A stretch of DNA of 64,000 nucleotides from Candidatus Omnitrophota bacterium (GTDB lineage: Bacteria; Omnitrophota; Gorgyraeia; Zapsychrales; Zapsychraceae). Below are positions 29,082-64,000 of this stretch, piece after piece. A model generated the notes under the pieces. That model was not told where the DNA came from and searched no databases. It saw only the letters and a list, made by a program, of their open reading frames with translations. The stretch's first letter is position 1. Each line of letters begins with the position of its first letter. The position numbers and the translations under genes are program-made. Location: contig JAJDCB010000009.1 in assembly GCA_029261065.1 (NCBI GenBank), positions 33,625 through 97,624 of the forward strand, given 5' to 3'.

Positions 29082-29221
29082 AATAGCGGCTAATTTACCA
29101 TACCCATTGACTTTTGTCGAGGTATTTGTTAGGTTAGAGGCTTACGTTTCTAAACGTTTTTCACTTGAATTCCAATTTCTTTTAATCTGTAAACGATTGC
29201 TAATCAACAATTTATAAAACC

Positions 29222-34835: not shown

Positions 34836-34841
34836 TACGCG

Positions 34842-36808: not shown

Positions 36809-36811
36809 AAA

Positions 36812-39276: not shown

Positions 39277-39361
39277 GATTAGAATATAGGATATGGTGGT
39301 TAGCTTTCAAGGATTTATATAGAAAAGGAATAACGCCCAGAAACCCAACCCTCAATCTTTA

Positions 39362-45455: not shown

Positions 45456-46226
45456 TTAAGGCAACACCATATCGTAATGATGTTTCTTCAGCCATGCTTT
45501 GGCATCCAAATATTGTGGATAAAATTTTTTCACTTGATTCCAAAAACGTTTGGAATGATTCGGCACAATTAAATGGCATAATTCATGAACGACCACATAA
45601 TCAATGACCTCCATGGGTGCTAAAATAATTTGCCAATTAAGATGAATGGTCTGTGTATTATAGTCACAATTGCCCCATATTCTTTTATGCGCACGAATAG
45701 CGATTGTCTTTGGGGTGACATTAATAATACGAGCATAATAAAAAAGCCTTCCTCCTAAAACTTCTTGCGCTTGCTGACGATACCATTGAATCATTTTGGC
45801 TTTAGTCAGCTGCTTTATTTTTTCTTCACTAAGAGATTCGGGTACGCTTACAAGCCACCTTTGTCCATCAAACTCAATTTTCGCTCTCTTAGCGGATGAG
45901 GACCTTACATTAAGAGTGCACTTCTCTCCCATAAACAAAAAATTATTCCCGTCTATAAAGTCTCTTGATTGTAATTGGGATTGAATATCTTTGGCCTGTT
46001 TAACTCGCGTGATAATCCAATGTTCTTTTTCCTTCATAAACATTTGGATCTCTTTCATCTTCGAGCTAAAGGGTACAGAAACGCTTAAATTGGCTTTCTC
46101 ATCAATGGAAATCGTTAAAGTTCTTCGATGAGAAGAACGCTTTAATAAAAATTCAAGGTCTCCTTGGGAGGAACGAAAAAAAGATATCTCTTTAGTTATT
46201 TTTTTGGGACGTTTTATTCGAGGCAT
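45456..46226 (-). CDS. YgjP-like metal-dependent hydrolase (DUF45/WLM/SprT-like zinc metallopeptidase)
   Basis: 256 aa. The C-terminal region reads VVVHELCHLIVPNHSKRFW (HExxH zinc site), the typical YgjP family end. Confidence 0.75.
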   Translation of the reverse strand: MPRIKRPKKITKEISFFRSSQGDLEFLLKRSSHRRTLTISIDEKANLSVSVPFSSKMKEIQMFMKEKEHWIITRVKQAKDIQSQLQSRDFIDGNNFLFMGEKCTLNVRSSSAKRAKIEFDGQRWLVSVPESLSEEKIKQLTKAKMIQWYRQQAQEVLGGRLFYYARIINVTPKTIAIRAHKRIWGNCDYNTQTIHLNWQIILAPMEVIDYVVVHELCHLIVPNHSKRFWNQVKKFYPQYLDAKAWLKKHHYDMVLP

Positions 46227-46270: not shown

Positions 46271-47458
46271 TTAATCTATGATTTCTACATCAATTGTAAC
46301 ATTTCGTGGCTTGGCAATATCCGTTTGAGGCTTTACTTCTGATTCCTGAGGAACTCCTGCATCATATTTGGCTTGATTAACTTTGATCTCGACGCCATTT
46401 TTTACTAAATAACCATTATTGCCTAAAACAAGACGAATACGATCCAACTCTTTTAAGGCTGACTTTCTGGCCTGTTGAGCTTCTTTTTTAAAATGCTTAA
46501 TTTTTGTTTTAACCGTTCTCATCCGACCTTCATACAAATTCATTAAAACTTTAGCTTCTTCAGTGTTTTTAACATCACCCGCATAAAACCTCATCTGATC
46601 TTGCAAAACAGAAATTTCTAAATTCAGCTCCTTATTTTTTTGTTGAAGCAAAGATATGGTTTGCTCTAGTTCCATGCGTGTTTCAGATATTTGATGCTCA
46701 TTAAGATTTTTGACTGTTTCTAGATCATTAACCAATGATGTATTCCCAGATTTTGCTTGCGCTAACATCTGTTCTGTTTCAGCTAAAATAGACTTCGTAG
46801 ATTCTAATTCTTCATTCAAAGAAACCAACATACTTTCGCTTTCATTATAAAGCTGCTTTGTACTTTCTAATTCGCTTGTCAAATTAGTTACCATCAACTC
46901 ACTCGCATAATAACGATGGGAATAACTCATTGTTAAGGCGGCCTGTTGATCGGAAACGGCAAACAATTTATGATTGGCCAAATTAATATTCTTATACGTA
47001 TCCTGCCCCGTCCAAGTCATCCAAGCAGCAAGCATGGCTGCTGCAAAAATCAAAAGAACGCCTAAAAGGGCGGTAAGCTTTTTCTTATTACTAAAACTTA
47101 ATAATCCTTTTTGAATCCGTTGTCTAAGCTTAGCTGATATGTATTCGGAAGGTTCTACAAACTTAACACCACAGAGATTGCGTTGTTGAAAAACGCCCTG
47201 TTTTCTTTGCCAGACTAATCGAGCTGTTTGAGGAATAAAATTGCGAGGACCTAAATCGGTATCAAAAGATAAAACACACTTATTGGTTTGATCAAGGGCT
47301 TCATCTATCTCTAGAAGCATCCCTGATGTGCTGATATTACGAACTCTAGCCCTTCCCGATTTCGACGTCTGAGGAATTCGCCAGGCAATACGCTTATTTT
47401 CATTTATGCGTAAGTTTTCTCGCGTATCGCTAAAGACCCTATTCGTTGTTGTCACCAT
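46271..47458 (-). CDS. Membrane-anchored PilZ-domain protein with long coiled-coil region
   Basis: 395 aa. The N-terminal ~120 aa contain KRIAWRIP...RARVRNISTSGMLLEI, consistent with the PilZ RxxxR ... (D/N)xSxxG c-di-GMP-binding motifs. A TM follows (LTALLGVLLIFAAAMLAAWMTW), then ~200 aa of heptad-like coiled coil. Confidence 0.6.
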   Translation of the reverse strand: MVTTTNRVFSDTRENLRINENKRIAWRIPQTSKSGRARVRNISTSGMLLEIDEALDQTNKCVLSFDTDLGPRNFIPQTARLVWQRKQGVFQQRNLCGVKFVEPSEYISAKLRQRIQKGLLSFSNKKKLTALLGVLLIFAAAMLAAWMTWTGQDTYKNINLANHKLFAVSDQQAALTMSYSHRYYASELMVTNLTSELESTKQLYNESESMLVSLNEELESTKSILAETEQMLAQAKSGNTSLVNDLETVKNLNEHQISETRMELEQTISLLQQKNKELNLEISVLQDQMRFYAGDVKNTEEAKVLMNLYEGRMRTVKTKIKHFKKEAQQARKSALKELDRIRLVLGNNGYLVKNGVEIKVNQAKYDAGVPQESEVKPQTDIAKPRNVTIDVEIID

Positions 47459-47614
47459 TTTTGGAAGCTCCAGTTCTACCTAATTGACGTAACAACCTTT
47501 AAAACAACACACATCTAAACTTTCAAACCTTAAAAGCCATTATAAAGACAATTTAAAATCAAGACAAGGGAATTTATTGTTATTTTATTTTTCTAATATT
47601 CTAAATTCTTTGTC

Positions 47615-48313
47615 CTAAAATAATCGTAAACGTACAGCACGAAATTCTTTCAGAATCAAATCTTCTTTAGACTTAGACATTTGCAAAATATTAACTAAAT
47701 GAGCCGCCTCAATCTTCCCTTCATTAAGACCCTTTAAAATCATCGTATTTTTCTCAGAGACATGTAACAACAAATTTCTATAAATGACCTTGGATGACAA
47801 AATATGCCGAAGTGTAGTCTCAAAATTAAGGCGTTGAGAGGATTGAAGCTCTGTTAAGGACAATCCCTCCTCTCCTAACTTTCCATACAAAACCCCTAAA
47901 TTATATCTATACCAAAAAACCTCTGGCTTTCGCCTAACAGCCTCCTTTAACAAAACGATAGCCTTATCATAGTCGCCTACTTGATAGTAACAAAACCCCA
48001 ATAAGGCATAACTTTCAGAAATATGAGGGAAAAATTCAATAACAGCTTGATAATAGCGCAAATATTCCTTCATTCGCTCAACCTCAACAGATGACGGGTC
48101 ATTTGAGATCTCTAAAAGATAATCAAAAGATGATGGCACAATCATGTTGAGTTTTCTTACCTTAAAACCATCTTGAAACTTCTTATAATCAACAACACCA
48201 CCAGAGACCAAATAAAGGAATGCATAAAAGACAAACGCCCTTCTTGAAAAACTTCGTAAAATAGTCCAAAACTTATAAGAGTCTTCATTATGTGTTTGAG
48301 TGTGATCAGCCAA
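47615..48313 (-). CDS. Membrane-anchored TPR-repeat protein
   Basis: 232 aa. It has an N-terminal TM (FVFYAFLYLVSGG) and the TPR unit ALLGFCYYQVGDYDKAIVLLKEAVRRKPE. Its 3' end overlaps the start of the next gene by 8 nt. Confidence 0.6.
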   Translation of the reverse strand: MADHTQTHNEDSYKFWTILRSFSRRAFVFYAFLYLVSGGVVDYKKFQDGFKVRKLNMIVPSSFDYLLEISNDPSSVEVERMKEYLRYYQAVIEFFPHISESYALLGFCYYQVGDYDKAIVLLKEAVRRKPEVFWYRYNLGVLYGKLGEEGLSLTELQSSQRLNFETTLRHILSSKVIYRNLLLHVSEKNTMILKGLNEGKIEAAHLVNILQMSKSKEDLILKEFRAVRLRLF

Positions 48314-50477
48314 GTTCGGTCCTCTTTCTGCCGCTTAAATAGAAAACACCACCCAAGGTCCCTGCCATGATGAGCATTAGCACAACATTAAAAACCACTC
48401 GTATGGGGGAACCATATACAAATTCAACATTATGCGTGCCCATTGGGACCCAAACTCCTTTAAATGACATATTGGTCTTCCATATAGGTACGTGTTGACC
48501 ATTGATATACGCCGTCCTCCCTTTATGATCATTATCATTAAAAACCAAAAATTTATTTTTAAGCAAATCTGTTTTTAGAGATAAACGATTTCCTGTATAT
48601 TTAGAAACACGAACTTCCCTAGAATCTGTATGAATAATTTGAAATGTCTCGCTAGCATTTTTATCGATAGCCGAAATCACCCCACCTTGCCCCACATCTT
48701 TGATAAAGGCTAAGTTCGTATTCTGCGCCATTGTCTTTGCTAAACGGTTTAGATCGAAGGTCTCTTCCTGAATAATTTCAACATTATCATATAGAATAAT
48801 TTTATACCGCAGATATTCATCAAGAATAAACGGATTAATATTATGGTAAAGCTCTACAAAAGACTTTAAACCTACGTATACCTGATTAGCTCTCTTCTCT
48901 GTTAACTGAGAAACGTAAGTTTGATAATCCTTGGATTTTCTTTCTAAAAAATAATCTACGCGTTCTTTAGAAAGCAGCAAGGGCATATCATCAATAGTAA
49001 ACTCTTTAAATAGAGAATCTCGCGTATGAGAATTTTTATCAAGATGAGCATAGACAATGAGAGGTTGGATACCGATAAGGAGTAAAAGGAAAAAATAAAG
49101 CCATTGATGTTTGATAAGTTTAAACCCAGAAAAAACATTTAAAAAAAACAACACACTTAATCCACAAATCATCCATTCACAAATTCCCGCATGACTTTTA
49201 AATAAAATAACGCCAAAACCAAGATGGGCTAAAAAAACAAGCAAACCATAGATAGGAGGCTTAATTTTTTTCTCTTCAAACTCCTCTAAAATAAGCTTTA
49301 AATGTTCCACGCAAACAAGAACATAAACAGGCAACAATGTTAACCATATAAAAAATTGAAAGTTCCGAAAATATTTAAAAAATAAGATATGTTCGTACAA
49401 AAATTTATAAATGGGTGTGGCATCATAAAGACTGATCCAATAAATAATAACACCCCACAGGGCAAGAAGCATTAAACGAGGGCTCCTTTTAGCTGCAATA
49501 AGCCCTAACAAAAAGAGCAAGTGAACCCAAATAGAGATGTATACTTTTCCCAACAACATCGATTCATAGTTGGTGAATAAATCTTTTAATATATTCTGGG
49601 TAGCAATCCCTCCCACAGCATTAGATTGTAGGCCCACCTCTGCCATATGAGTAGATAAAGCATTATGCGTTCGGACAGGCAAAACTAATTCTGATTGGTA
49701 CCCTTGGACATAAAATAATAATCCGGGAACTATAGCAAGCAATAAAAATAGGACGCACATCAACGAAAACCATTTATTGCGTGCAATAAAACCAAAAAAT
49801 ATATAAAGAGCACGAGGGATACAAGAGAAATAAAACAAAGAAAAACAAAAAATAAAAACAATCAAAGTCGTTAAAAAATAGAAAGGAATGTATGTGATGG
49901 CGATGATCATAAGGCAGATTGTCATCCCTAAAAAAGAACGTTTGTTAGGGGTAGTATAAAAATCTAATAAAAAGAAAAAGAACCATATCGAAGGCGTTAA
50001 TACTAACATCACAAAAGAACCAAACAACGTTGTAGCCAAAGATGAACTCATCAAAAGTAAATAAGCACAAAAAGCCAAATACGTATGAGAAAACAAACGT
50101 TTAGCAATATAATAAAATCCAAACATGCCAAGAAAATAATAACCAGCTAGGAATGTAAAATAAGCGGTATCAAAACTAACACCTATCTTAACAAACAAAA
50201 GGATTAACATATAAAAGGGGTTAACCTCACCTATCCGACGGTAGAAAAATTCTGTAGGTGTTCCAGATAAACGTATTGGATCCCACATGGCAAATATGCC
50301 GTTGGATAAATGATAGATTAAAGTGCGGGTGTGCTCGTAATATGAAATAGCATCCCCAACAAGCGGAGCTTCTGTGGTAAGAAAACTTCTGAAGGCATAG
50401 AGCCAAGCAACAATTGATAAGATAAAGGCAACGACAAGAAAGCCACGTGAGGAAAAATTATTCTGCGGAAGCCCCAA
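48306..50477 (-). CDS. Large polytopic membrane protein, YfhO/GT-C-like topology (putative lipid-linked glycosyltransferase)
   Basis: 723 aa with ~12-14 predicted TM helices in the first ~460 aa. The first extracytoplasmic loop carries an acidic/aromatic motif (GDAISYYEH). A ~230-aa soluble domain follows, then a final C-terminal TM (VVFNVVLMLIMAGTLGGVFYL). This topology is typical of YfhO/GT-C enzymes. Confidence 0.45.
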   Translation of the reverse strand: MGLPQNNFSSRGFLVVAFILSIVAWLYAFRSFLTTEAPLVGDAISYYEHTRTLIYHLSNGIFAMWDPIRLSGTPTEFFYRRIGEVNPFYMLILLFVKIGVSFDTAYFTFLAGYYFLGMFGFYYIAKRLFSHTYLAFCAYLLLMSSSLATTLFGSFVMLVLTPSIWFFFFLLDFYTTPNKRSFLGMTICLMIIAITYIPFYFLTTLIVFIFCFSLFYFSCIPRALYIFFGFIARNKWFSLMCVLFLLLAIVPGLLFYVQGYQSELVLPVRTHNALSTHMAEVGLQSNAVGGIATQNILKDLFTNYESMLLGKVYISIWVHLLFLLGLIAAKRSPRLMLLALWGVIIYWISLYDATPIYKFLYEHILFFKYFRNFQFFIWLTLLPVYVLVCVEHLKLILEEFEEKKIKPPIYGLLVFLAHLGFGVILFKSHAGICEWMICGLSVLFFLNVFSGFKLIKHQWLYFFLLLLIGIQPLIVYAHLDKNSHTRDSLFKEFTIDDMPLLLSKERVDYFLERKSKDYQTYVSQLTEKRANQVYVGLKSFVELYHNINPFILDEYLRYKIILYDNVEIIQEETFDLNRLAKTMAQNTNLAFIKDVGQGGVISAIDKNASETFQIIHTDSREVRVSKYTGNRLSLKTDLLKNKFLVFNDNDHKGRTAYINGQHVPIWKTNMSFKGVWVPMGTHNVEFVYGSPIRVVFNVVLMLIMAGTLGGVFYLSGRKRTELG

Positions 50478-50501
50478 TGTTGGTACCTTTAAGAATACTT
50501 T

Positions 50502-52475
50502 CTAGTTAAAAAAAGGAATGGATTCTAAAATGTCATCGATAATGGCTTCTTCTGGCGAGACAGATTCTTGCTGCATGGGTTCATCCCCTACTACAGCCCC
50601 ACCTTCTGTCGTTACAGCACCAGACTCATCATCGCGATTATATGTTTTTTGCCTTTGCAATTCCGGATTTTGTTCCCGAATATCAAGGGCCTTAAAGATA
50701 ACATCTTTTAATTCTTGTTTAGCCCTATCAAAAATCATAGATTTGGCAACACCATCAATTTCTGGATAAACAATTAGTTTATCATAAGGACCATTGTATT
50801 GAGAAAATTGAATTTCAACTTGCGACTCATCATTTAAAAAGGAAGAAAACTCTGAAACGCCATTAACGATAGAGTTAGAAAGCTTCTCTTCTAAATAAAG
50901 AGTCGGTTTAAATTGAATATTCCCCTTATAATCTAGCTCCCCATCAGCTTTGAGAACAAACTCTTCTCCATCTATGTCTAAATTATAAGAAATTCTACTA
51001 TTTTTCGTTTGTAGCTTTGTATTAATTAAAGATATATTAGTATCCGGACTATTGAGTTTCTCTTTTAATGTGCTTGGTAAAGAACGATTTAGTTCCTCAA
51101 TGATGTCATATCCAGCTGCTTTTGCGATAATTGTTGGCGCTGATAACACTTTATCAAAAACCATTCTTAAGATATTAATATTGATCAATTTTGCATCCAC
51201 CACTTGCAGGCTTCCTGTTCCTACTAAAGATGATTTTAACATCTCTAACGTTTGCGCTTGCGTTTTAATTTCTAGATTCGAGCTTAAACTTCCCTCTAAA
51301 TTTAACGGCTCATCTAAGCCTTCTATTTCAATTAATTTCTCTTGCGAAAACAACTCTTGTAACAATAGATCCTCAGCATTAATATCTAATCGCAACTTCC
51401 TCTCTTTCATATAATCATCCACACGTCCCTTAATTTGAATCTTACCTTGAGCCAAATACATAAAAAACTCATTAATGATCACATCTTGTTCGCTGATTTC
51501 CAACTTGATATCAATATTTTCAATCGGATATTTTAAATCAGCAGACCTTATCTTCCCATTATTAAGCCCTCCATCAGCTGTTAGAACCAGCAAACCTTCC
51601 GGCCCTACAATTACCTGATGAATATCTAAACTAACAATTCCTTCAAGTTTATCCGTTAATCCCACTGGTCTTAAGTCAGGCACACTATTTAATAGACGAG
51701 ATAAAGAAAGATCTGATAAATTTGATTTTAACTTCACATCATCCACACGCAATTGACGATTTTTAGCATCGATCTGGGCTGTGCCATCAAAATCAATATT
51801 TGGTTTATCGCTAAACATCGACCATGCCATTTTAAAAGGAAACGGCTTATCTAAAGATAAATTTGAAATTTCAATTTGTAAATCAGCAATAGGAACATTA
51901 ACAGGAGGATCTTTTCGTTTATCTAGAAAGGTAACTAATCCATTTGAGATACGAATGGATTTAGCCATGATAGGTGGCATTTTAAAATTCTTTGACTTAT
52001 CTTTTTTTGATGAACCTGACGTTTCCTTCTCCTCACTTTCTGTAGAAGAAACAGAATCATTTACAGTTTTAGCAAAGGCTTCAAAATTTAATGTTCCGTC
52101 TTTATCAATAATAAGATGAATCTCTGGCGTATCAATCTCGATATGATTGATAACAATGGCTTGTGTGGTTATAAAGGCAAGAACATCCACATGTAGACGT
52201 AGGGAATCTGCTATCAGCATAGGAGATTGAGAAAATTGAGGATCATCGTTTAAACGAAGACTATCCACTCTAACAGACGCCCCCTTAAAAAAAGAAAAAT
52301 CAAGAGCTAAAGTATCAGCATACACCTCACGCTGAAGTTGTTTACTAACGGTCTTAATTATCTGAGGTTTGTAGTTATTAAGCTTAACCGTTTTTAAAGC
52401 AATAATCGTTGCACATACAACAATGAGCAGTAAGATAACAATCGTTTTTAGTAAAATTTTGATAAACTTTTTCAT
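50502..52475 (-). CDS. AsmA-family protein (TamB/YhdP-like envelope lipid-transfer family)
   Basis: 657 aa. It has an N-terminal TM anchor ([21 protein letters not shown]) followed by a long beta-rich periplasmic region typical of AsmA-like proteins. The C-terminus is acidic. Confidence 0.6.
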
Positions 52476-54739: not shown

Positions 54740-54820
54740 GATTTACAGTTTAACAATTTATTATAGATAACTCAACAAAAGTTATATCATGAAAAAAAGA
54801 AGGCGGGGATAAAGAGAAAA

Positions 54821-57800
54821 TTAATAATGTTGTTCAACACCATTTAATGCATCAGCAATCATATCGGCACGGGATTTATTATCAGGCAACGATAGTTCTT
54901 GCCGTTGAGGTATTGATTTAAAACTTGAAGGTTGTTTATATGTCCTTTTAGGGGCAACACGACCTTTCTTCTTACGAAATTTAGATTCTCTGATAAGTGC
55001 TTTTTCACATTTACTAATAAATTTATCTATCTTTTTATAATTTGGTTTAATATCACCTACCTCAAGAAAAACATTTTTAGCCTGATAAAACTCCTTATGC
55101 TCATACAGACTGATGCCCTTGGCATATAATATTTCTAAATTTACTTCCAACTCCTTGCGTATCTTTTCACGTTCTTGACGAAGTCTTTCTTGTCGTTCAC
55201 GTACCAAACGATCTAACTCCATTTGTTTTTCTTTCTCCAAAACAGAACGTCTCTTTTTCTCTAATTTAAGCTGTTCTGCCCGAGAAATTCGCAATCGTTC
55301 TTCTTTACGTTTCTCAAATTTTTCTGATACAGGAGCATCCAACTTCTCTTTAAACTTCTCAACCCTTTTAAGGTTAATCTTTTCTCTTTTATCACCATTT
55401 AATTTAGCAATACTTTTAATTGTCTTTACTTTTTCTTTAGCCAATTGCGCCTCCTCTCTTCTAATCTGAGCTTCCAAGTCTTCTGTATCAGCAGCCTTAA
55501 ATAAATCAATAGGCGAGGTGCCACTTTGGTTCATTTTTGATTCTCGTATCAGCATTATTTTCTTTCGTTTCGCCTCATCCTTAGCAATTTCTTTTTGAAA
55601 TTTTCTACGATCCTTACTCATTCGTTTACGCATACGTTCTAAATACTTTTCAGAGAAATCGCCTTTGGCCAACAACGACTCATACTTATTAAACTTGGCT
55701 TGAGCCAACTCTTTATTATCAGAACGATATAATACCATCCCTTCTTTATAGACTTGAGAAATTTCCCTTTTTAATCGATTACGAATTTCTTTTTCCTTAA
55801 TCTTAGCTATTCGTTTGGCTTCCTTTTCCTTAGACAATCTTTTCTTTTCTGCCTCTTTGTTCTTTAATTCTTCCTCATGCTTCTTCGCCTCTAATTCCAA
55901 CTCCTGCTTTTTCTTCTCAAATTCCAATTTTCTTAACTGTTCAACTCGGGCCAATTCTTCTTCCTTTTCTTTTAATTCCATCTCTTTCTTTAACAAACGT
56001 CGATTAGTCTCTTCTTCCTTTTTCTTAAGCTTTGCTTCACGTTTATCATAAGGATATTTTAATTTTGATTCATTATCCTCTTTTGCACGCCATTGATCAT
56101 TTTCTTTTTTAGCTTTTTCTTCCAATTCTTGGTCATTTTTAACCATTTGTTCTTGCACATCATCCTTTTTTGATTCTTTTTTTAGAGCTTCTCTCTTTAA
56201 CTCTTTTACATTTTCAATGCGTTGCGCCTCAAACGCCTCATCTGCCTTAGCCAACATTCGTTCACTACGAAGAACGTAAGCTTTAGCTGACTTGAATCCT
56301 GGGTGGAGGGCATCTATGGTAGAAAATTTAACCTTCGCCTCTTGATAAAATCCATCTTCAAACAAAGACAAACCTTCTTCATAAAGTTTCTCAACCTCAT
56401 CCTGCCATAATTTTTTGTGTTCATTATCTTTTGAGCGCAGATGTTTATTTATTACCTTCTGATTTTTCTTGTATTCTTTTTGACGTTGCCTTTCTAATCG
56501 GTTAACTTTATTGGACGTTGCCCTACGTTTGACTTCTGCCTTTTCACCATCTATATCTTGTTTAATGCGTTTTTCATCGTATTTCGAAAGCACTTTATCT
56601 TCATCTGAAACTTTTTCCTTTTCCTGAGCATGTTTATCTTCCTGATTAGCTTTAACTGCTAAAACACCGCCTGCTTTGACCGCTTCACTCTTCATACGGG
56701 CAGCCTCTTTTTCTAATCTTAAAGCTTCCTTTTCTAAATTTTTAACTCTTTCCTCTTCCTTTTTACGTGCATTTTGTTCAGCTAATTGAAACTCACGCTT
56801 TTTCTTAAGATCTTCCATCTTCATACGGGCAGCCTCTTCTTCTAATCTCAAAGCTTCCTTTTCTAAATTTTCAACTCTTTCTTCTTCCTTTTTACGCGCA
56901 TTTAATTCAGCTAATTGAAACTCACGCTTTTTCTTAAGATCTTCCTTTTTTCGCATTTTTTCTTCTTCTACGTTTTCTTTTTCTTCTATTTTAATTTCTT
57001 TTCTTAAATCTTTCTTTTGTTGGGCCTTTCTCCATTTTGCACGCCGTTTTCTTTCACGCTTAACTTTGGCAATCGTCTCACGTTCTCGACGAAGCTCATC
57101 TTTAAATTCTTGATTACGTTTTCCACTTAATTCACCTAAATGTTCCTCTTTCGCTTTTAATTCGGCCACCCTCTTATCTTGTTTTTTATGCCACTCATCC
57201 TCATCAAACTTTTCATCACCTTGTTCTTCTGTTTTATGAAGCAATGAAGCATCAACATCTTTTAACTCCAAAGGCTCCTTTGCTTTGGCAGCCGAATTTA
57301 CAATTTTTCTTTCTTTCGTTTCAAGTTGTTTCGTGATGCGACCTAAGTACTTTTCTGTAGAACGATAATCTTCCTTCATAGCATTAATTTCCGTAAACTT
57401 ATCACGAGCCAAACCATATTCACCTTGACGATAAAATTCTTGAGCTTGCTTATAAAGCATTTTTAACTCATCTTTTTTAGAGACAATTTTTTCATCATTT
57501 TTCTTCGCAGAAGATCTCTTAACCTTAACGGCCTTTCTTTTCTTTTTCTTAACAATCTTTGCCTTGACCTTAGGTGAAGAAGAAACAGGCGTAATACGCT
57601 GAGATCCGTTAATAGCGCTATCCTCCAAACGTGACAAATAACTTAAGGCATCCTTGTATCCAGGATAAAGAGCCTCAAGTTGAATAAATTTTATTTTAGC
57701 CTGAGAATATTGTTTTTGTTTATAAAGATTTACGGCCTCTTTATAGCGCGTGTCTGCATCTTTTGTTAATTGCTCCTTACGATTTTTAACGGCACGATCA

Positions 57801-59428
57801 ATCGCGTTATCTTGATAATCGCTCTTTACGACCCTTATAGCTGGCTTATCTTTTGCTAAATATTTTTCAATTTTACTTAAAAAACTATCTGTCTTCTTAT
57901 AGTCTGGAAATATACGTTTAAGCTCCTGAAATTTTACTTTTGCCTGCTTGTATTCTTTCTTCTTATATTTACTCACTGCAGCTTTATAGACAACACCCGC
58001 TTGCTTTTCTTTATGCGCTTTAAGTTTATCGGCCACATCTTTGGCCTGATCACTATCAGTAGCATCTTGATCGACATCTTGAGCTACCTCTTTTTTTAAA
58101 CGCTTAATTTCGCTTTTTTTACTTTTTTTACTTTTTTTGCTTTTTTTGCTTTTTTTGCTTTTTTTGATTTTAGCTTGCTTCAACTGCCTTTCTTTTTTCA
58201 ACTCTTGAGCAAAACTTTTCAAATCATCGCTTTCTCTTACCCCCAAAATCTTATTTAATTTTGCAAAATATTTTGCTGTATTTTTATAATCCGGATAAAA
58301 GTCTTCCAATTCATCAAACCGCTTCTTAGCCTTTTCGTAATCTTTACGCTTAAATAATTTTATCGCAGCTTTATAAAGAAATTCAGCCTCATCTTCTGCC
58401 CGCATTTTTTCCCGCATAGCTTTCTGCTCTTTATATTTTTTATTTAATGCCTTTTTTTCTTTACTAGATAACTTAACGATTTCATTGCCATCTTCATCAA
58501 AACGATCTGCGTGTTTTTCTCGATATTTTCTAAAATTCTCAATATCTCGATCAACACGTGATAAATATCTAATAGTCGACTTATAATTTGGTAATATCCA
58601 CTCAACTTCCTGAAACTTTTCTTTGGCCAATTCATATTGGCGTGTCTTATGTAGAGAGACGGCTTGACGATAGGTTTCCTCTGCTTGATCTTCTAGCTTT
58701 TGTTCTCTATCCTTTTCTCGCTTTAATATTTCAGCTTTCCACTTTTGTTTATCACTACGCCGCTCCACAGCTTCTTGCTGTAATTTTTTCTCAATCAAGA
58801 CTTCTTGTTCTTTATCAATTTCACGCCCAATTAACATCATATAACTACGCGTTGCTTTATGATCAGGAAACATGTCTTCTACATTTTCAAACTCTTTTTT
58901 GGCTGCCATCCATTTTTTCTGTTTATATAGTGACACTGCCGACTGATAAACCTCTTCAACCTCTTTTGAGCTATAACCTCGCTCAACTTCTAAACGTTTA
59001 ATTTTTCGTTTTTCTTCTTTATTAAAAGCAATTTCTAGTTTTTTCGCTTTACGCGCGCTTTCATTTAAATAAGCCTTCATCTCAGGGTGCTCTGTAATTT
59101 TAATCGCATCTTCCCATAATTTTTGGGCCTCTTCAAACTTACCTTCTTCGTATAAACGCATTGCTTTTTCGTAATACTCCCGTGCCTTTTCTTCACGCTG
59201 TTGATTACGTCTTAAACGTGCTTGATTCTTCAACTTATCATTTACAGACTCAATTTTCTTCTTAGATTTTTTAATAAGGGCTTTAAGATTAAGAACATAA
59301 CCCTCGCTTTCTTTTTGTTCTTTAAAGGGGATGTCCTCCTCGGCGGAAGATAGAGTTGGTGGTGCGCTTAAAAAAAGGCTGGCGCTTAGAAGGCTAATAG
59401 TGAGGTGCTGTTTAAATAGCTTTTGCAT
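54821..59428 (-). CDS. Secreted 1535-aa Lys/Glu-rich coiled-coil protein with ten dispersed BamD/YbgF-like TPR hairpin units
   Basis: It has a signal peptide (LTISLLSASLFLSAPPTLSSAEE). A ~42-aa unit of the form Yx(A)vxLYkxKxYxxAKxKFxEvxxxxPdYKxTxxYLxRIxxxL occurs ten times (e.g. YKEAVNLYKQKQYSQAKIKFIQLEALYPGYKDALSYLSRLE; YKAAVSKYKKKEYKQAKVKFQELKRIFPDYKKTDSFLSKIEKYL). The units are separated by highly charged K/E/R-rich predicted coiled coil. The gene also contains a 129-nt tandem duplication and a (KKS)6 tract. Confidence 0.7.
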   Translation of the reverse strand: MQKLFKQHLTISLLSASLFLSAPPTLSSAEEDIPFKEQKESEGYVLNLKALIKKSKKKIESVNDKLKNQARLRRNQQREEKAREYYEKAMRLYEEGKFEEAQKLWEDAIKITEHPEMKAYLNESARKAKKLEIAFNKEEKRKIKRLEVERGYSSKEVEEVYQSAVSLYKQKKWMAAKKEFENVEDMFPDHKATRSYMMLIGREIDKEQEVLIEKKLQQEAVERRSDKQKWKAEILKREKDREQKLEDQAEETYRQAVSLHKTRQYELAKEKFQEVEWILPNYKSTIRYLSRVDRDIENFRKYREKHADRFDEDGNEIVKLSSKEKKALNKKYKEQKAMREKMRAEDEAEFLYKAAIKLFKRKDYEKAKKRFDELEDFYPDYKNTAKYFAKLNKILGVRESDDLKSFAQELKKERQLKQAKIKKSKKSKKSKKSKKSKKSEIKRLKKEVAQDVDQDATDSDQAKDVADKLKAHKEKQAGVVYKAAVSKYKKKEYKQAKVKFQELKRIFPDYKKTDSFLSKIEKYLAKDKPAIRVVKSDYQDNAIDRAVKNRKEQLTKDADTRYKEAVNLYKQKQYSQAKIKFIQLEALYPGYKDALSYLSRLEDSAINGSQRITPVSSSPKVKAKIVKKKKRKAVKVKRSSAKKNDEKIVSKKDELKMLYKQAQEFYRQGEYGLARDKFTEINAMKEDYRSTEKYLGRITKQLETKERKIVNSAAKAKEPLELKDVDASLLHKTEEQGDEKFDEDEWHKKQDKRVAELKAKEEHLGELSGKRNQEFKDELRRERETIAKVKRERKRRAKWRKAQQKKDLRKEIKIEEKENVEEEKMRKKEDLKKKREFQLAELNARKKEEERVENLEKEALRLEEEAARMKMEDLKKKREFQLAEQNARKKEEERVKNLEKEALRLEKEAARMKSEAVKAGGVLAVKANQEDKHAQEKEKVSDEDKVLSKYDEKRIKQDIDGEKAEVKRRATSNKVNRLERQRQKEYKKNQKVINKHLRSKDNEHKKLWQDEVEKLYEEGLSLFEDGFYQEAKVKFSTIDALHPGFKSAKAYVLRSERMLAKADEAFEAQRIENVKELKREALKKESKKDDVQEQMVKNDQELEEKAKKENDQWRAKEDNESKLKYPYDKREAKLKKKEEETNRRLLKKEMELKEKEEELARVEQLRKLEFEKKKQELELEAKKHEEELKNKEAEKKRLSKEKEAKRIAKIKEKEIRNRLKREISQVYKEGMVLYRSDNKELAQAKFNKYESLLAKGDFSEKYLERMRKRMSKDRRKFQKEIAKDEAKRKKIMLIRESKMNQSGTSPIDLFKAADTEDLEAQIRREEAQLAKEKVKTIKSIAKLNGDKREKINLKRVEKFKEKLDAPVSEKFEKRKEERLRISRAEQLKLEKKRRSVLEKEKQMELDRLVRERQERLRQEREKIRKELEVNLEILYAKGISLYEHKEFYQAKNVFLEVGDIKPNYKKIDKFISKCEKALIRESKFRKKKGRVAPKRTYKQPSSFKSIPQRQELSLPDNKSRADMIADALNGVEQHY
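56691..56948. repeat. Tandem duplication, 2 x 129 nt (~95% identical), inside the 1535-aa gene
   Basis: Copy 1 at ~56691-56819 and copy 2 at ~56820-56948 both begin TTCATACGGGCAGCCTCTT. They encode two near-identical 43-aa units (EDLKKKREFQLAE(L/Q)NARKKEEERV(E/K)NLEKEALRLE(E/K)EAARMK). Confidence 0.9.
58113..58166. repeat. Simple sequence repeat: six tandem 9-nt units CTTTTTTT(A/G), each with a T7 run, encoding (KKS)6 on the minus strand
   Basis: The sequence 58113-58166 reads cttttttta cttttttta ctttttttg ctttttttg ctttttttg ctttttttg. It lies inside the 1535-aa gene (KIKKSKKSKKSKKSKKSKKSE). Confidence 0.9.
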
Positions 59429-59456
59429 AAATTAATAATTCGTAGTAAACATGTCG

Positions 59457-59474
59457 TCCCCGCGAAAGCGGGGA
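59457..59474 (-). terminator. GC-rich stem-loop (6-7 bp stem, GAAA tetraloop) in the AT-rich spacer between the two giant genes
   Basis: The hairpin is tCCCCGCgaaaGCGGGGa. A second imperfect GC hairpin lies at ~59516-59532 (TTCCGCttccGCGGGAA). On the minus-strand transcript no strong U-tract follows the stem, so it is a weak intrinsic-terminator candidate or an RNA stability/processing element. Confidence 0.4.
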
Positions 59475-59579
59475 TCCATTTATAATAATATATATAGATA
59501 TAGTTATTATGAGGTTTCCGCTTCCGCGGGAATAACACTTTTCTATTAGTACACTTTTAATATATCTATATTAGTGACC

Positions 59580-62500
59580 TCATTCTACCATAGGCCCTTG
59601 AACCTCTTCCAGAATTTTCTCCAGTATTTTCTTTGCTTTATCATACTGTCCATTCTTATAATATTGGTCAGCTAGAGTGCTCATTTCTTTAAGTTTTTCT
59701 TCCTTATCAATTTGACCCTGAATATATTGGGCGGCCTCAGCAAACATCATTTGACCTGCCATAATAATATCGCGATAGATCTGTTGAGATTCTTCTAAAC
59801 GGCCGTCCTTGTGGGCTTTTTGAGCTAAGACAAAATAACTATTTAATTCATAGAGGATCGGACTATCATCTCGTGATAACTCATCATCAACCATAATCCA
59901 AGCCCAATAGGCGATTTTTTCTTGTAACCAGCGCTGTTTATTGCGATCTTTTTCTTCCTGCGTTTGATCATAAAGACTTCCGGTAATGCGCATAAACGGC
60001 CCTTCAGAGGCATAATCTAGATGAGTGAGATCATCATCAAATTCTGTAAAATTGTAACCAATTCCAATTTGAGCAAACTCACCTACACGTCTGGCTCCCT
60101 CAATGAGGAATCCACGTTTTTGGTCTCGGGCTTCTTCAACATCCAAAATACGGAATTCACTTCCTATCGTCCAATCGCTATCAATTTTATAATTCAATCG
60201 ATGAATCATTAACCATGTATGTGTTTTTGTAAAATCAAAGCCTGTGACTTTTTCTTCCCCAATACGATACGCAAACTTTTCTGTAACTTGCCATTTATCT
60301 GTTAAATCATAAATCACATCAACAGCCATAACATGCGCGCTTTCTTCTTCAATATCAGATTTATCCTCCTGACCTTCTGGAGAGCGTTCTTCAAGATAAG
60401 TGTAACGACTTAAGATATTTAAGCGATCATGATAAATAGGACGATAGGCAGCACCAATAATTAACTCTTTATGTTTCGCCTCATAACGGCCTGCTGTTTC
60501 ATTTCGTGTCTTAGAAATTTCTATTTTACTAAAGACGGTAAGTTCAGAAGAAAGCTTGCCTTCGACAGAGCTAAAAACGAGATACTGTCTTTTATTTTCT
60601 TCACCATCATCAAAACGCGCTTCTAATTTTGTTGAACTGCTAAGCGCTTTTCCTGTTTCTTCATCTGTATGAGAATAACCCATTCCTAAACTCACCACAT
60701 CACGATCAGATTCAGAACCATCATGACTTTGAACTTCTCCTCGCTCATAAGAACCTGAAAAAGCCCAACGATCATCAATGTCCCCTGATAACCCATAGAT
60801 GTTTGAACTCGTAATATCTTTATCACCTTCTGAATACGCGCGTGTTAGAGACCCTTCTAACTTCTTACCGTTCTTCTCACGAATAAGACTGTATGTCGAA
60901 TCGGTTGTATTGGCCTCAGGTGTTTGTCCAAAGGCACGATTGGTGGCCACACGTAAGTCTTGTGTTAATCTTGAACTTGAACCAAAACTCATAGCACTTG
61001 ATCGACCCTCCGTTTTTGAATCGGTTAGATCAAACTGGCTGGTTGTTGTAGTTTTGTCATTAATTTGAGAGTCGCCACCAAAACTTAACGTTGTTGAACT
61101 ATCATCAACAGACTTAGCCATCTCAATATTGGTATTAACAGAGGTCTTCTCATCAACTTGTTTGGATGCTCCTACTCCAAGAGTTGTGGTCCTTTGACCT
61201 GCTTTATCTGTAGTAACTGAAGTTCGCACCTCAACCTCATCACTAATTTTAGCTTCAGCTCCCATGGTAGATGTTTTCTCTACATTGCCAGCTTTATCCG
61301 TAGTAATGGCATAACCACCCGTTAAGCTTAACCGTTCTGAGACATCAGCTGTTACATCTAGCTCTGTTGCTGTTCCTGATGTTGCGATAACCTCTTTGGC
61401 TTCGATGGTTATACTTTCTGTTGGTTTTACTATGGCACCAAGTGTTGTTTGGTTATTCTTCGCACCATGAATAGTCATTTGCTGCTCTATGGAAAGTTCT
61501 AACTTATCGCTTACGGTATAATCTCCACGGATAGCCAAAGAATCTTCAATTTCTTCAGACTGACTGTCAAACTTATCAATACGCGATTTTGTCACTTGAC
61601 GTTGGTATTCCCCTGTTAATTTTAAGTCGCGAATCTCATGGACAACCTGAACGATTGAAGTCGATGTCTTAAACGCTCCTAATTGAAGTTGTGTTTGCGC
61701 ATTGCCATCGTGAATCAGGCTTTGAATATCATGACGGGCACTTAACCGTGTCTTTTCAGCTAAATCATAAACGACCTCAAATCCTGAAAGCTCTTTGCCT
61801 TGCTGAGATGTCGTAGCTGCTGATGAGAAGTCATTTCCTATCCATTTATAATAGCTGCTCACACCAAGTCTGTTAAATAATCTAGCATCCCCCTTAATAC
61901 CATAGGCCGATCCAGATGAAATTTCGCTGGTTTTTAGTTCTGCAAAGGATAAACCACCATCCGTTGATATAAACGTGCCTTGCGATTCTGAAACCGTTTC
62001 GGCGTATTCAGCCGTAACAGAGGCATCTTCACTTAGTCGTACAGTCACATCCGTACCCCGCAATTCGTAATCTGTTTGATCTTGGGTTTCACTCACATAA
62101 GTGACTCCAGCAATCACGTTATCTGAAAGTGCCTGTCGGACACGTGTACCGGCGGTGGATTCATCAAGTTTTTCATTCACTTCATACTGGTAATCTGTAA
62201 TCACATAAACAAGATTTCCGTCTAATAAGTCATTAGAGATGATGGAATAAGTATCCACAAGGATTGGTACAGGTCTCCAGAACAAGATACGACCACTGTT
62301 ATAATCCATTTCATAGTCAGCCCCTTCTTTCATTTCTCGAGAAGAAACAACTAAACCTGTAATCTTATCTCTTACTTCAATCAAAACTTTATCAGAACCT
62401 TCAATGACATCCTTATGTTTTAAGAAGTAGAGCGAACCACCCGTTGCTAAAAACTCATTATGCGCACTCTTTTGTTGTGTGCGGGCATGGAAGGCAACAA

Positions 62501-64000
62501 CTTTTGTACGCGAATCTCCAAATTTTGTTGCACTTAACGATTCAAAATCAACCATACCACCAAATAAACTTCGTGAGTATTGAGAGAATTCTGTTTCATC
62601 AAATCCAATGCTGTAGTTACCCCATTTCGCTTCAGATTTATCCCACTCAACGAGGACAAAGAGATTGCCTTGGGTATTAGTCGCATCATAATCGATATTT
62701 CCATCATCGCCGTATACAGGATAATACTCATCAGGATCTAGATTTCTAAAAAGTTCTTTACGTTTACGATTGCTATCAAAACTGGATGTAATCAAATATT
62801 TACCAAGAACCTTACCCTTTAAGTAATACGCTAGCTGACCTTCAGACCAGAAGCCATTTGTGAATTTCTCATCTTGTTCAACAACTTCGATGTTACCTCG
62901 CGTAAAGGTATAACCCATCTTTGCATCACCCATCGCGACAAAGAAGACACGATCTTCGCCAATTTTGAGTGGTCGGTTAAATGTTGAATATTTTCTTGTA
63001 TCTGAAGTCAAACTGGAAACATCCGTTAATGCCGCTAATCCACCCTCATCATAAACAAGACCTTCTTCATCCCCGTCTGGAATCTGCTGGACTTGTAAGA
63101 TGTAATCGCCTTTTGGCAAGATGACATCGACTTTATTTAAATCATCTGTTGCTTGGCGAAGATCGCCATCAATTAATTCGCGAGCTGTTAAAGCCTTAGC
63201 TTTCGTGACGGGGACATCAACAAATAACTGCCCATCTTTTATGACCCGAATACTCTTAAGGTTCGTTTGATTGCGATCAATAAATACGGTTTCCCCTTCA
63301 ACAAAAATGTTTTGAAGACGCACACTATTTACCGTCGATTGCCCCTTGGCCCATTGTGGATATTTTTCTCGTCTTGCATCTGTTGCTTCTATAAACTCCT
63401 CGTATTCTTCCTTTTCTTCAATCTCTCTAAAGTTTAAGAGTTGTGGTTTAGTTTCATCCCATTTACCCTTTGCATCTTCAACATATAGTAAGTATTGATA
63501 ATTGCGATCCGTTCGAACATACTCACCCGTCGCATCACGGCCATCCCATAGGATTGGATCATGAATATTTAAACGATTACCATCAAACTTACGGATGAGC
63601 CTATTAGTATCGCGATCAACGATTTCGAGTTTCCAATATTCTATAAAGGAAGCATAGTTGGTAAAAACCTTAAACTCGAGGGCTTCAACGGGGACATCTT
63701 CGTAAAGCACGAGTTCTTCATTAAAGAGACTTGTGTGCAATCGTGGTTTAGGACGTTTATCTTCTTGGACAACACTGACATCTTCTGTAAAGAACTGTAA
63801 GTTTTTATCTTGAGATATATCGTAATCTACATTGACACCAAAGTTCACCTTAGCCGTTAACCCTTTGGTGATATCAACGATGACAACTTTATTGGTGGTT
63901 AAATAACTTCCTTCGGGCAATGTTCGTTCATCTAATCTAAAGAGATGTCGTCCTGGTGTTAAGGCTGGAACACTAAAGCGTCCTTTCTGGTCTGTTGTAA
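59580..64000 (-). CDS. Giant beta-rich surface/outer-membrane-associated protein (>1470 aa; N-terminus beyond window end) with carboxypeptidase-regulatory-like and FlgD-Ig-like domains, Thr/Ser-rich segments and C-terminal TPR-like helical tail
   Basis: The ORF track starts it at a TTG (63918-63920), but the frame remains open to nt 64000 (...TTDQKGRFSVPALTPGRHLFRLDERT-L-PEGSYLTTNK...), so the true start is off-window. GRFSVP...PGRH resembles a CarboxypepD_reg domain. ILWDGRDATGEYVRTDRNYQY resembles an FlgD Ig-like domain. A long alternating/amphipathic T/S/G-rich beta region ends ...GEFAQIGIGYNFTEF.... The C-terminal ~120 aa are TPR-like (YYKNGQYDKAKKILEKIL). Confidence 0.6.
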   Translation of the reverse strand, partial: TTDQKGRFSVPALTPGRHLFRLDERTLPEGSYLTTNKVVIVDITKGLTAKVNFGVNVDYDISQDKNLQFFTEDVSVVQEDKRPKPRLHTSLFNEELVLYEDVPVEALEFKVFTNYASFIEYWKLEIVDRDTNRLIRKFDGNRLNIHDPILWDGRDATGEYVRTDRNYQYLLYVEDAKGKWDETKPQLLNFREIEEKEEYEEFIEATDARREKYPQWAKGQSTVNSVRLQNIFVEGETVFIDRNQTNLKSIRVIKDGQLFVDVPVTKAKALTARELIDGDLRQATDDLNKVDVILPKGDYILQVQQIPDGDEEGLVYDEGGLAALTDVSSLTSDTRKYSTFNRPLKIGEDRVFFVAMGDAKMGYTFTRGNIEVVEQDEKFTNGFWSEGQLAYYLKGKVLGKYLITSSFDSNRKRKELFRNLDPDEYYPVYGDDGNIDYDATNTQGNLFVLVEWDKSEAKWGNYSIGFDETEFSQYSRSLFGGMVDFESLSATKFGDSRTKVVAFHARTQQKSAHNEFLATGGSLYFLKHKDVIEGSDKVLIEVRDKITGLVVSSREMKEGADYEMDYNSGRILFWRPVPILVDTYSIISNDLLDGNLVYVITDYQYEVNEKLDESTAGTRVRQALSDNVIAGVTYVSETQDQTDYELRGTDVTVRLSEDASVTAEYAETVSESQGTFISTDGGLSFAELKTSEISSGSAYGIKGDARLFNRLGVSSYYKWIGNDFSSAATTSQQGKELSGFEVVYDLAEKTRLSARHDIQSLIHDGNAQTQLQLGAFKTSTSIVQVVHEIRDLKLTGEYQRQVTKSRIDKFDSQSEEIEDSLAIRGDYTVSDKLELSIEQQMTIHGAKNNQTTLGAIVKPTESITIEAKEVIATSGTATELDVTADVSERLSLTGGYAITTDKAGNVEKTSTMGAEAKISDEVEVRTSVTTDKAGQRTTTLGVGASKQVDEKTSVNTNIEMAKSVDDSSTTLSFGGDSQINDKTTTTSQFDLTDSKTEGRSSAMSFGSSSRLTQDLRVATNRAFGQTPEANTTDSTYSLIREKNGKKLEGSLTRAYSEGDKDITSSNIYGLSGDIDDRWAFSGSYERGEVQSHDGSESDRDVVSLGMGYSHTDEETGKALSSSTKLEARFDDGEENKRQYLVFSSVEGKLSSELTVFSKIEISKTRNETAGRYEAKHKELIIGAAYRPIYHDRLNILSRYTYLEERSPEGQEDKSDIEEESAHVMAVDVIYDLTDKWQVTEKFAYRIGEEKVTGFDFTKTHTWLMIHRLNYKIDSDWTIGSEFRILDVEEARDQKRGFLIEGARRVGEFAQIGIGYNFTEFDDDLTHLDYASEGPFMRITGSLYDQTQEEKDRNKQRWLQEKIAYWAWIMVDDELSRDDSPILYELNSYFVLAQKAHKDGRLEESQQIYRDIIMAGQMMFAEAAQYIQGQIDKEEKLKEMSTLADQYYKNGQYDKAKKILEKILEEVQGPMVE

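Follow-up and report, generated by a model that had tools for sequence, protein, structure and literature searches.

We study here an 18-kb stretch of seven consecutive minus-strand genes, at positions 46271 to 64000 of a DNA segment of 64,000 nucleotides (nt) from a Candidatus Omnitrophota bacterium; this whole segment is called the window in what follows. An earlier note, written from the sequence, had presented the seven genes as one candidate envelope system, responsive to cyclic diguanylate (c-di-GMP), that would build or glycosylate a giant surface protein. The genes are listed below by decreasing coordinates, with lengths in amino acids (aa); TPR stands for tetratricopeptide repeat, GT-C for glycosyltransferase fold C.

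59580 to 64000, minus strand: Giant, open past the window end, with its C-terminal 1472 aa visible.
54821 to 59428, minus strand: KE_TPR, a secreted Lys/Glu-rich protein of 1535 aa with about 10 TPR-like hairpins.
52472 to 54739, minus strand: DUF255 gene, a DUF255/YyaL-type thioredoxin (CHWC) with an (alpha/alpha)6-like domain.
50502 to 52475, minus strand: AsmA-family gene, 657 aa, recognised by Pfam, with an N-terminal membrane anchor.
48306 to 50477, minus strand: YfhO-like gene, a YfhO-related polytopic membrane protein of GT-C fold, first gene of a two-gene cassette.
47615 to 48313, minus strand: small TPR gene, membrane-anchored, with TPR matches in Pfam, the constant partner of the YfhO-like gene.
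46271 to 47458, minus strand: PilZ-TM-coiled-coil gene, with a PilZ domain, one transmembrane (TM) helix, a periplasmic coiled coil and a C-terminal LGNNGY domain.

All seven lie where the earlier note had placed them: two pairs overlap, by 8 nt (48306/48313) and by 4 nt (52472/52475), and there is no credible plus-strand gene between the seven open reading frames. Named relatives of the encoded proteins are nearly all from Candidatus Omnitrophota or from metagenome-assembled genomes (MAGs) labelled “uncultured Planctomycetales”.

The reading that we favour, and to which we give about an even chance of being right, is that three evolutionary units are combined here in a mosaic, set within a long single-strand collinear array typical of this Omnitrophota lineage, and that the first of these units is a conserved envelope module. 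The units are, on our best reading, Giant-KE_TPR, often extended by DUF255, by AsmA or by both; the YfhO-like gene with its small TPR partner; and the PilZ-TM-coiled-coil gene. The first unit bears the classical mark of a functional cluster, since it is retained at 38-57% protein identity while its flanks change.

Strand and spacing

The earlier note took the tight, co-directional packing of the seven genes as the signal of a cluster, a signal that turns out to be no stronger than the background of the window. The strand bias is extreme, with 45 of 47 genes on the minus strand. Gaps in and around the seven-gene stretch measure 44, 156, -8, 24, -4, 81 and 151 nt, with a median of 44; in the rest of the window the median is 12 nt, and 8 of 36 junctions overlap as well. 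Orientation and packing are therefore uninformative here. A scan for consensus promoters and terminators gave counts equal to the shuffled expectation, and so says nothing about operon structure. The window has a G+C content of about 37% and a GC skew that is negative throughout.

The rest of the window, on the same strand, is devoted to housekeeping: ribosomal protein S2, EF-Ts, RRF, LpxB/LpxK/WaaA, an MsbA-like protein, S-adenosylmethionine synthetase and others. One may ask whether there is any functional unit at all, or just an inherited gene order in a compact, strand-biased genome, in which adjacency is incidental. The strand bias, the gaps and the chance-level scans all favour this view, as does the collinearity of more than 30 kb described below for the loci closest to the window. 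What speaks against it are the neighbourhoods of more distant relatives, to which we turn after describing the first protein.

A giant protein with a predicted outer-membrane barrel

The reading frame of Giant has no in-frame stop between 63920 and 64000 and continues beyond the window; its relatives are 2000-3400 aa long. A word-indexed search found at least 276 homologues in this range of lengths, with N-terminal DUF11, CarboxypepD_reg, SdrD_B, Big and similar repeats. With a full phmmer scan the family grows to 2941 representative clusters at E<=1e-3, and to 995 at E<=1e-30. Lengths then run from about 1000 to 7600 aa, and the homologous module is always C-terminal (about 2900 clusters). 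Variable N-terminal repeats, in a region that can exceed 6000 aa, precede in this family a C-terminal module that is conserved and spans about 1340 aa. In the visible part of Giant we distinguish three features:

59970 to 62951, minus strand: predicted outer-membrane beta-barrel module, about 46 strands of at least 9 residues.
60975 to 61274, minus strand: Ser/Thr-rich stretch (35% S+T) in the central part of the barrel module.
59601 to 59960, minus strand: C-terminal helical, TPR-like tail, with helices in the AlphaFold2 (AF2) model and weak TPR_2/TPR_19 matches.

The AF2 model covers residues 331-1472 and was computed from an alignment of 52 sequences. With a pLDDT of 68.9, it contains the strands just mentioned, counted from DSSP, and then four long helices (model residues 1017-1136). 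On this model, the C-terminal module is predicted to have a transmembrane beta-barrel fold. Neither Pfam nor NCBIfam holds a model covering the barrel core of about 1000 residues. The Ser/Thr-rich stretch is its least conserved part, and also the part predicted with the lowest confidence. We considered the helical tail as a possible copy of the hairpins of KE_TPR and rejected the idea, the BLASTP comparison being not significant (E = 0.42).

The description of Giant in the earlier note, as a beta-rich protein with Ser/Thr-rich stretches, holds for the part in the window, which is an incomplete reading frame. Its domain names fare less well: FlgD-Ig goes undetected in visible Giant even at E<=1, and CarboxypepD_reg/SpaA gives no more than a weak match (E 0.19 and 0.029), truncated, at the very edge.

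Among known systems, one of the closest is type V secretion, with its classical and inverse autotransporters: in Giant too, a hypervariable repeat “passenger” and a conserved C-terminal membrane barrel belong to one polypeptide. The differences lie in the size of the barrel, about 1000 residues and 46 predicted strands versus 12-16 strands, and in the TPR-like tail, by which the last strand of Giant is not C-terminal. The 12-strand Autotransporter domain finds no match at the C-terminus of Giant in Pfam or NCBIfam. The best matches among solved structures are very large single-chain barrels, the 30-strand connector SlpA of Deinococcus radiodurans and SprA, a 36-strand translocon of the type IX secretion system that has been called the largest barrel known (bioRxiv 10.64898/2026.03.07.710327). 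Giant is, on the other hand, unlike the “giant ORFs” of 20-85 kaa (thousand aa) in the Omnitrophota literature, which are far larger, mostly alpha-helical membrane proteins, and among which no giant barrels are reported; it is much smaller, and a candidate surface or attachment structure.

Another role can be considered for the pair formed by Giant and KE_TPR: a tether or scaffold spanning the envelope, in the manner of Deinococcus SlpA or of OmpM, that would keep the outer membrane at a distance from the layers beneath or bind it to them, instead of an adhesin or export device. KE_TPR is long, secreted, highly charged and helical, and the tail that follows the last strand of the barrel is probably periplasmic; both points favour this role. 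However, TM-scores to SlpA are only about 0.2; SLH, OmpA-like and peptidoglycan-binding domains were not detected in visible Giant or in its relatives P0047 and P0053; and the N-terminal region, hugely variable in length and made of adhesin-type repeats, is more typical of surface-exposed passengers. We regard the tether as an unlikely account.

Conservation of the Giant-KE_TPR core

An unbiased scan of metagenomes, anchored on Giant, produced 80 loci, 39 of them with a Giant at least 38% identical to that of the window and 41 below this value. Loci are cited here by number, and KE stands for KE_TPR in gene orders. When identity reaches 38% and at least 1 kb is available downstream, a KE_TPR-like gene lies next to Giant in 23 loci out of 27, at identities of 38-52%; it is also directly downstream of Giant in L083, L165, L166 and L041. 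Eleven loci extend at least 9 kb downstream: KE_TPR is found in 8 of them, DUF255 in 4, AsmA in 3 (by tblastn) or 5 (by clustering), PilZ in 2 and YfhO/TPR in none.

Locus L083, whose Giant is 54% identical, has the order Giant-KE-DUF255-AsmA-PilZ, without YfhO/TPR. Further away, L093, L102 and L118 keep Giant-KE-(DUF255)-c33-AsmA, where c33 denotes a gene by the cluster to which it was assigned, and L134 keeps Giant-KE-DUF255, followed by an unclustered protein of 301 aa, with no recognised AsmA. These four loci continue into a NifU-like gene and into ilvN/ilvB on the opposite strand, and their upstream flanks vary too: since none of this resembles the flanks in the window, the Giant-KE block has survived a change of surroundings. 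A gene of 141 aa that follows the AsmA region in the same four loci was considered as a minimal PilZ protein, and is actually the NifU-like one; PilZ is absent from all four.

Such a block, kept with both flanks varied, and its DUF255/AsmA extension, which recurs with wholly different flanks (DUF255 only, in the case of L134), are not what incidental adjacency predicts. The absence of any functional unit seems to us improbable, about as much so as the tether.

The extension itself is less regular than the core. DUF255 follows KE_TPR in L083, L087, L089, L092, L099, L102, L118 and L134, and is paired with AsmA, away from any Giant, in L169 and L010. AsmA is syntenic in L083, L086, L087, L093, L102, L118, L165, L166, L168 and L169. 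Other loci have Giant-KE and then unrelated genes, and the complete genome CP070684, with a Giant 41-42% identical, has no partner genes.

Three observations on the surroundings of Giant are recorded here for their own sake. Just upstream of it, in eight loci (L085, L099, L101-L104, L112 and L134), lies a gene of cluster c8, for a protein of up to 1158 aa without Pfam match and with repeats such as “GIGT...L.V.G”; it might be a further partner, located beyond the end of the window. Genes for IS200-type Y1 transposases (cluster c28) adjoin Giant in L083 (812-1441), L100 and L108. Finally, in L129-L154 a shorter barrel protein, of about 1550 aa, sits in a strictly conserved neighbourhood of 17 genes, in the order argG ... 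dapB, a secreted protein of 530 aa without assignment, the barrel, a lipoprotein of 140 aa, uvrA ... hrcA/grpE/dnaJ-like, the names being assigned by reading the sequences. Such strictness points to the barrel having a core role in that other lineage, not an accessory one. As a functional clue the neighbourhood was discarded, argG/argH/lysA/dapF/dapA/dapB ... uvrA ... hrcA/grpE/dnaJ-like being uninformative housekeeping genes.

The partner proteins of Giant

KE_TPR has an N-terminus that resembles a signal peptide, a composition of 34% K+E and about ten TPR-like hairpins. All of this agrees with the earlier note, with the reservation that the similarity to BamD is below threshold (55 bits versus 81).

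The DUF255 protein is recognised by Pfam as DUF255/Thioredox_DsbH (PF03190) with 265 bits, and carries the CHWC motif. Its place in the envelope, which the earlier note had assumed for all seven products, is uncertain. The hydrophobic, signal-like N-terminus, made of the first 35 residues, is present only in the window and in L083. In the orthologues of L087, L089, L099, L102 and L134, the conserved core is preceded by about 10-15 residues, and it is with the starts of such proteins that Met36 of the window protein aligns. Met36 may thus be the true start, and Met1 a start-codon miscall that alters the predicted compartment.

The AsmA-family protein is supported too (Pfam AsmA 93.5 bits, DUF748 68 bits, YhdP 46.5 bits), with a TM segment at residues 7-25 as the N-terminal anchor. 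It evolves fast, syntenic orthologues being only 25-30% identical.

An inner-membrane-anchored AsmA-family gene in one conserved block with the gene of an outer-membrane barrel recalls TamA-TamB, the translocation and assembly module (TAM), as well as YhdP and YdbH-YnbE. AsmA-like proteins are described as bridges for phospholipids between the membranes (PMC8593681, PMC11126948). The analogy is incomplete on both sides: the barrel of Giant is not of the Omp85/POTRA kind, and the AsmA-like protein of the window is short, evolves fast, shows no detectable DUF490 and comes with no identified partner lipoprotein.

A YfhO-like/TPR cassette

Against the Pfam YfhO model (PF09586), the YfhO-like protein of the window scores 23.7 bits, below the cut-off of 28.5, and aligns in its C-terminal part only. 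In its family, 18 of 23 members match the same model at E<=0.01, the best at 7e-08. As far as its sequence goes, the window protein is a divergent relative, not a certified member, of the YfhO family. A search of PDB sequences with a profile of the family returned nothing significant, and we resorted therefore to a fold search. The AF2 model is confident (pLDDT 83.7, pTM 0.87), and its top 17 Foldseek matches in the PDB are all GT-C enzymes (PglB, EmbC, STT3, ArnT and AglB), mostly with probability 1.0 and with TM-scores of 0.25-0.39; DPY19, ALG9 and PMT4, which are also GT-C, come lower in the list. The modelled protein thus belongs to the GT-C fold. All of 23 sequences compared share D42, a residue of the first extracytoplasmic loop (“VGDAISYYEH”). 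Of the two parts of the YfhO/GT-C call in the earlier note, the fold is the one that stands; the small membrane protein next to it does match TPR models in Pfam, as announced.

A scan anchored on the YfhO-like gene, with one genome per GTDB species, yielded 79 loci, or 82 with three added from a separate search. They are nearly all from Omnitrophota or from “uncultured Planctomycetales” MAGs, with two to three paralogous loci per genome. The small TPR homologue lies directly 3' of the YfhO-like gene in 71 of the 82, an association which, together with the translational overlap of the two genes, again argues against purely incidental adjacency. The other genes of the stretch are missing from 77 of the 79 other loci. 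The two exceptions are L041, the sole YfhO-anchored locus with Giant and KE_TPR, where YfhO-TPR is directly upstream of Giant, and L010, the sole one with AsmA and DUF255, in the order AsmA(1273 aa)-YceI-DsbA-DUF255-Pirin-YfhO-TPR (L010 1700-13164). The window protein is 35% identical to its paralogue in L041 and 34% to that in L010, and so is apparently orthologous to neither. No YfhO-anchored locus contains the PilZ gene; reciprocally, YfhO/TPR is absent from 80 of 80 Giant-anchored metagenome loci and from 5 of 5 PilZ-anchored loci. Its position between AsmA and PilZ is seen in the window only. From the constancy of the pair, its paralogues and the near absence of the other genes, we conclude that YfhO/TPR is an independent, multicopy cassette of two genes. 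A search for insertion scars around it found only short chance repeats.

Known members of the YfhO family, such as Bacillus subtilis YfhO, Listeria GtlB and streptococcal PgtC2 and PgfM1/M2, share with the window protein the GT-C fold and the similarity to the Pfam model. Outside the cytoplasm, they attach sugars to teichoic acids or to S/T-rich protein regions (PMC5836110; PMC12041528). The streptococcal enzymes glycosylate S/T-rich extracytoplasmic regions and adhesins, beside which the Pgf operon encodes them (PMC12041528). The window protein departs from this group by its score below the cut-off, its diderm host, its small TPR membrane partner, and the lack of a family 2 glycosyltransferase (GT2) or GtcA in cis.

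A second group for comparison is that of the TMTC/PMT-type GT-C enzymes, in which a TPR module facing the acceptor side accompanies the GT-C membrane domain. The cassette has the same combination, except that its TPR module is a separate, translationally coupled polypeptide. Fused proteins do exist next to Giant: directly upstream of it in L090 (4207-5781) and L118 (789-4515) are polytopic membrane proteins with a C-terminal TPR, grouped in cluster c30, whose N-terminal “FxxDD...N” motif recalls TMTC-type GT-C enzymes, a fused analogue of the YfhO+TPR pair.

We can now consider the reading proposed in the earlier note, in which all seven genes form one c-di-GMP-responsive system, the YfhO-like enzyme O-glycosylating Giant while AsmA and PilZ build or regulate the structure. 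Seven adjacent genes on one strand, intact PilZ motifs, a supported GT-C fold and an S/T-rich stretch in Giant are all compatible with it, the streptococcal enzymes provide a precedent (PMC12041528), and about 5 of 46 loci (the window, L041, L090, L118 and L123) have GT-C-like or TPR membrane genes within 10 kb of Giant. However, the scans just described detach the cassette from both Giant and PilZ, its paralogues near Giant being apparently not orthologous. PilZ, for its part, is missing from L093, L102, L118 and L134, which keep Giant-KE, and its firmest ties are with housekeeping genes. Nor does the window offer the other components. Among its open reading frames there are no GGDEF/EAL genes, no GT2 genes, including polyprenyl-phosphate sugar synthases of the CsbB/GtrB type, and no GtcA-type flippase; an Rfam scan of the window found three tRNAs only, and no c-di-GMP riboswitch. 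The three components of a GT2, flippase and GT-C glycosylation system are thus not assembled in cis, and the partners of the GT-C protein could be elsewhere in the genome. We consider the unified system to be quite unlikely.

The PilZ protein and its neighbours

The PilZ domain (PF07238) of the third unit scores 31.5 bits against a cut-off of 22.5, at residues 13-113 of a protein of 395 aa. In the c-di-GMP motifs RxxxR and NxSxxG, residues R13, R17, S43 and G46 never vary among 37 homologues, and N41 is conserved in at least 90% of them. A TM helix at residues 128-146 is followed by a long coiled coil and by the conserved C-terminal LGNNGY domain, which belongs to a small family: 47 homologues were detected, the named ones all from Omnitrophota. 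On these motifs, the protein is very likely a c-di-GMP receptor, as the earlier note had proposed.

The two genes that follow are needed to describe its neighbourhood:

45456 to 46226, minus strand: YgjP-like metallopeptidase (Pfam, 184 bits), outside the seven-gene stretch, start of a collinear housekeeping block.
45085 to 45318, minus strand: DUF167/YggU gene, 77 aa, within the 465-nt “gap” between YgjP and YqeY.

The second of these is below the usual length filters for open reading frames, and is found in the same place in L165-L168. The block continues 3' of YgjP with DUF167, YqeY, a polysaccharide deacetylase, a GH149-like protein of 1090 aa (U1090) and the MoxR/DUF58/BatA-D operon.

Five loci, L165-L169, were anchored on PilZ. 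In L165 and L166 the order is Giant-KE-AsmA-PilZ-YgjP-DUF167-YqeY-deacetylase-U1090(-MoxR/Bat); in L168, AsmA-PilZ-YgjP-...-LpxB; in L169, which lacks Giant and KE, DUF255-AsmA-NUDIX-hexapeptide transferase-PilZ-YgjP-...; and in L167, which lacks Giant and AsmA, a KE_TPR-like gene of 1657 aa and then PilZ-YgjP-.... The adjacency of PilZ and YgjP holds in 6 of 6 scorable loci (L086, L165, L166, L167, L168 and L169). AsmA lies upstream of PilZ, directly or two genes off (L169), in 7 of the 8 related loci that have PilZ, and PilZ is next to AsmA only in relatives with the gene order of the window, the named ones all Omnitrophota. PilZ is linked more constantly to the series YgjP-DUF167-YqeY-deacetylase-GH149-like than to AsmA, a link that is kept in L167. 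Protein identities in the PilZ-anchored loci are 77-79% for MoxR, 58-61% for U1090, 52-57% for Giant, 34-38% for PilZ and 25% for AsmA.

Adjacency within one collinear lineage is insufficient to establish a contact of PilZ with AsmA or KE_TPR. In the literature we found no link between AsmA-like and PilZ proteins, none of the top-ranked papers mentioning both.

The order of domains in the PilZ protein, and its length, resemble those of Alg44, a co-polymerase with PilZ in the cytoplasm, a single TM helix and, in the periplasm, a helical domain similar to membrane fusion proteins (MFP). This raises the possibility of a synthase-dependent exopolysaccharide system, of the Bcs/Alg/Pel/Pga type, in which the receptor would work with a TPR protein, a barrel and a deacetylase. 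All three are present, the last as a Polysacc_deac_1 gene at 43757-44539. We reject this possibility, as a GT2 synthase, Alg8-like or other, is nowhere to be found in the 64 kb of the window. Moreover, the PilZ protein has no HlyD/MFP match, the barrel is several times larger than the 16-18-strand porins of such systems, and YgjP, DUF167 and YqeY lie between the deacetylase and PilZ; it is with these three that the deacetylase stays in L167, where Giant and AsmA are missing. Its probability is, in our estimate, very low.

Weighing the three units

The test of neighbourhood conservation suggested in the earlier note gives a divided answer. In the 168 related loci examined, the combination of seven genes is not found again; its sub-blocks do recur, Giant-KE_TPR (23/27) and YfhO-TPR (71/82) as well as PilZ-YgjP (6/6), and Giant-KE_TPR(-DUF255)(-AsmA) does so with different flanks. 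That several of the genes belong together is supported; the seven as one unit fail this test in part. The second suggested test, profile searches, upheld the PilZ, AsmA, DUF255 and TPR calls, while YfhO stayed below its cut-off and FlgD-Ig was absent.

Several facts weigh against the favoured reading. The barrel model of Giant is of moderate confidence, its pLDDT of 68.9 falling to 38-57 in the central third. Many Giant-KE loci (L088, L090, L094, L096, L105, L106, L116 and L117) lack DUF255 and AsmA. No partner is detectable in the 41 loci with a Giant below 38% identity, the count for genes next to Giant being 0 of 33, and one subgroup of these places the Giant gene between dapB and uvrA, with housekeeping genes around. 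Most orthologues of the DUF255 protein having no signal peptide, it may reside in the cytoplasm and have nothing to do with the envelope. Finally, plain inheritance of gene order throughout the lineage could account for a large part of the synteny around PilZ: MoxR is 77-79% and U1090 58-61% identical in these loci. The collinearity of L165-L168 spans more than 30 kb and reaches into housekeeping genes (YqeY, the Bat operon, LpxB and MsbA).

With these points in mind, our best reading of the first unit, from the sequences and gene orders above, is a module that would build or anchor a giant surface protein held by its barrel. The gene structure, the domain and fold assignments and the synteny statistics are results; all functional couplings are inferred. 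The barrel of Giant would anchor, and possibly export, the N-terminal adhesin-like repeat region at the cell surface. KE_TPR may bind the periplasmic tail of the barrel, as a scaffold or chaperone. The AsmA-like bridge, by analogy with TamB and the substrates of TamA, might supply lipid or aid insertion at the outsized barrel. The YfhO-like/TPR cassette, inserted between AsmA and PilZ, probably takes a sugar from a polyprenyl-phosphate donor and passes it to an acceptor in the periplasm or at the surface, for which the S/T-rich stretch of Giant is just one possibility. The PilZ protein may modulate the AsmA/KE_TPR side through its periplasmic part; this is the weakest link of the chain. Both the glycosylation of Giant and its control by c-di-GMP are conjecture.

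A bolder construction can be put on the same data. The barrel of Giant would be single and closed, would exceed 40 strands and would be larger than SprA; with KE_TPR, the AsmA-like bridge and the PilZ-TM-coiled-coil protein, it would make a c-di-GMP-gated trans-envelope machine that deploys or retracts a giant adhesin in ultra-small, possibly host-dependent Omnitrophota, its S/T-rich loops glycosylated by the GT-C/TPR cassette. We mention it as a long shot.

Other genes of the window

Lipid A and lipopolysaccharide (LPS) genes lie at 1869-6125 and 27288-31284: a lipid A acyltransferase fused to an ELM1-like domain, LpxK, WaaA/KdtA, an MsbA-like ABC transporter and LpxB. This set shows that the host is diderm, and indicates a true LPS outer membrane. 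On the minus strand, 33009-40357 holds a complete “aerotolerance” operon of the Bat type, collinear with L166 and L167, that comprises a MoxR AAA+ protein, a DUF58/VWA protein, a protein of 186 aa without assignment, BatA, BatB, a TPR protein (BatC-like) and BatD. U1090 is encoded at 40440-43712, also on the minus strand; it has no Pfam match, is 58-61% identical in relatives, where it is always 3' of the polysaccharide deacetylase, and has a partial match to the NCBIfam model of GH149 beta-1,3-glucan phosphorylases (124 bits versus a cut-off of 1150).

Significance

A lesson of method is that, in strand-biased and compact genomes, tight co-directional packing is not evidence for an operon. 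As for the biology, the conserved core of the stretch varies known themes in an undescribed way: a repeat protein is anchored by a barrel and accompanied by an AsmA-like helper. Barrel-anchored giants form a large, uncharacterised family, of about 2900 clusters at 50% identity, whose members in Omnitrophota have a specific TPR partner, itself secreted, and often an AsmA-like protein besides. If the barrel of Giant is as big as predicted, it would extend the known size range of single-chain outer-membrane barrels, and the question is then how such outsized barrels are inserted and supplied with lipid. The family is a natural test case for AsmA-like proteins that are specific to a substrate.

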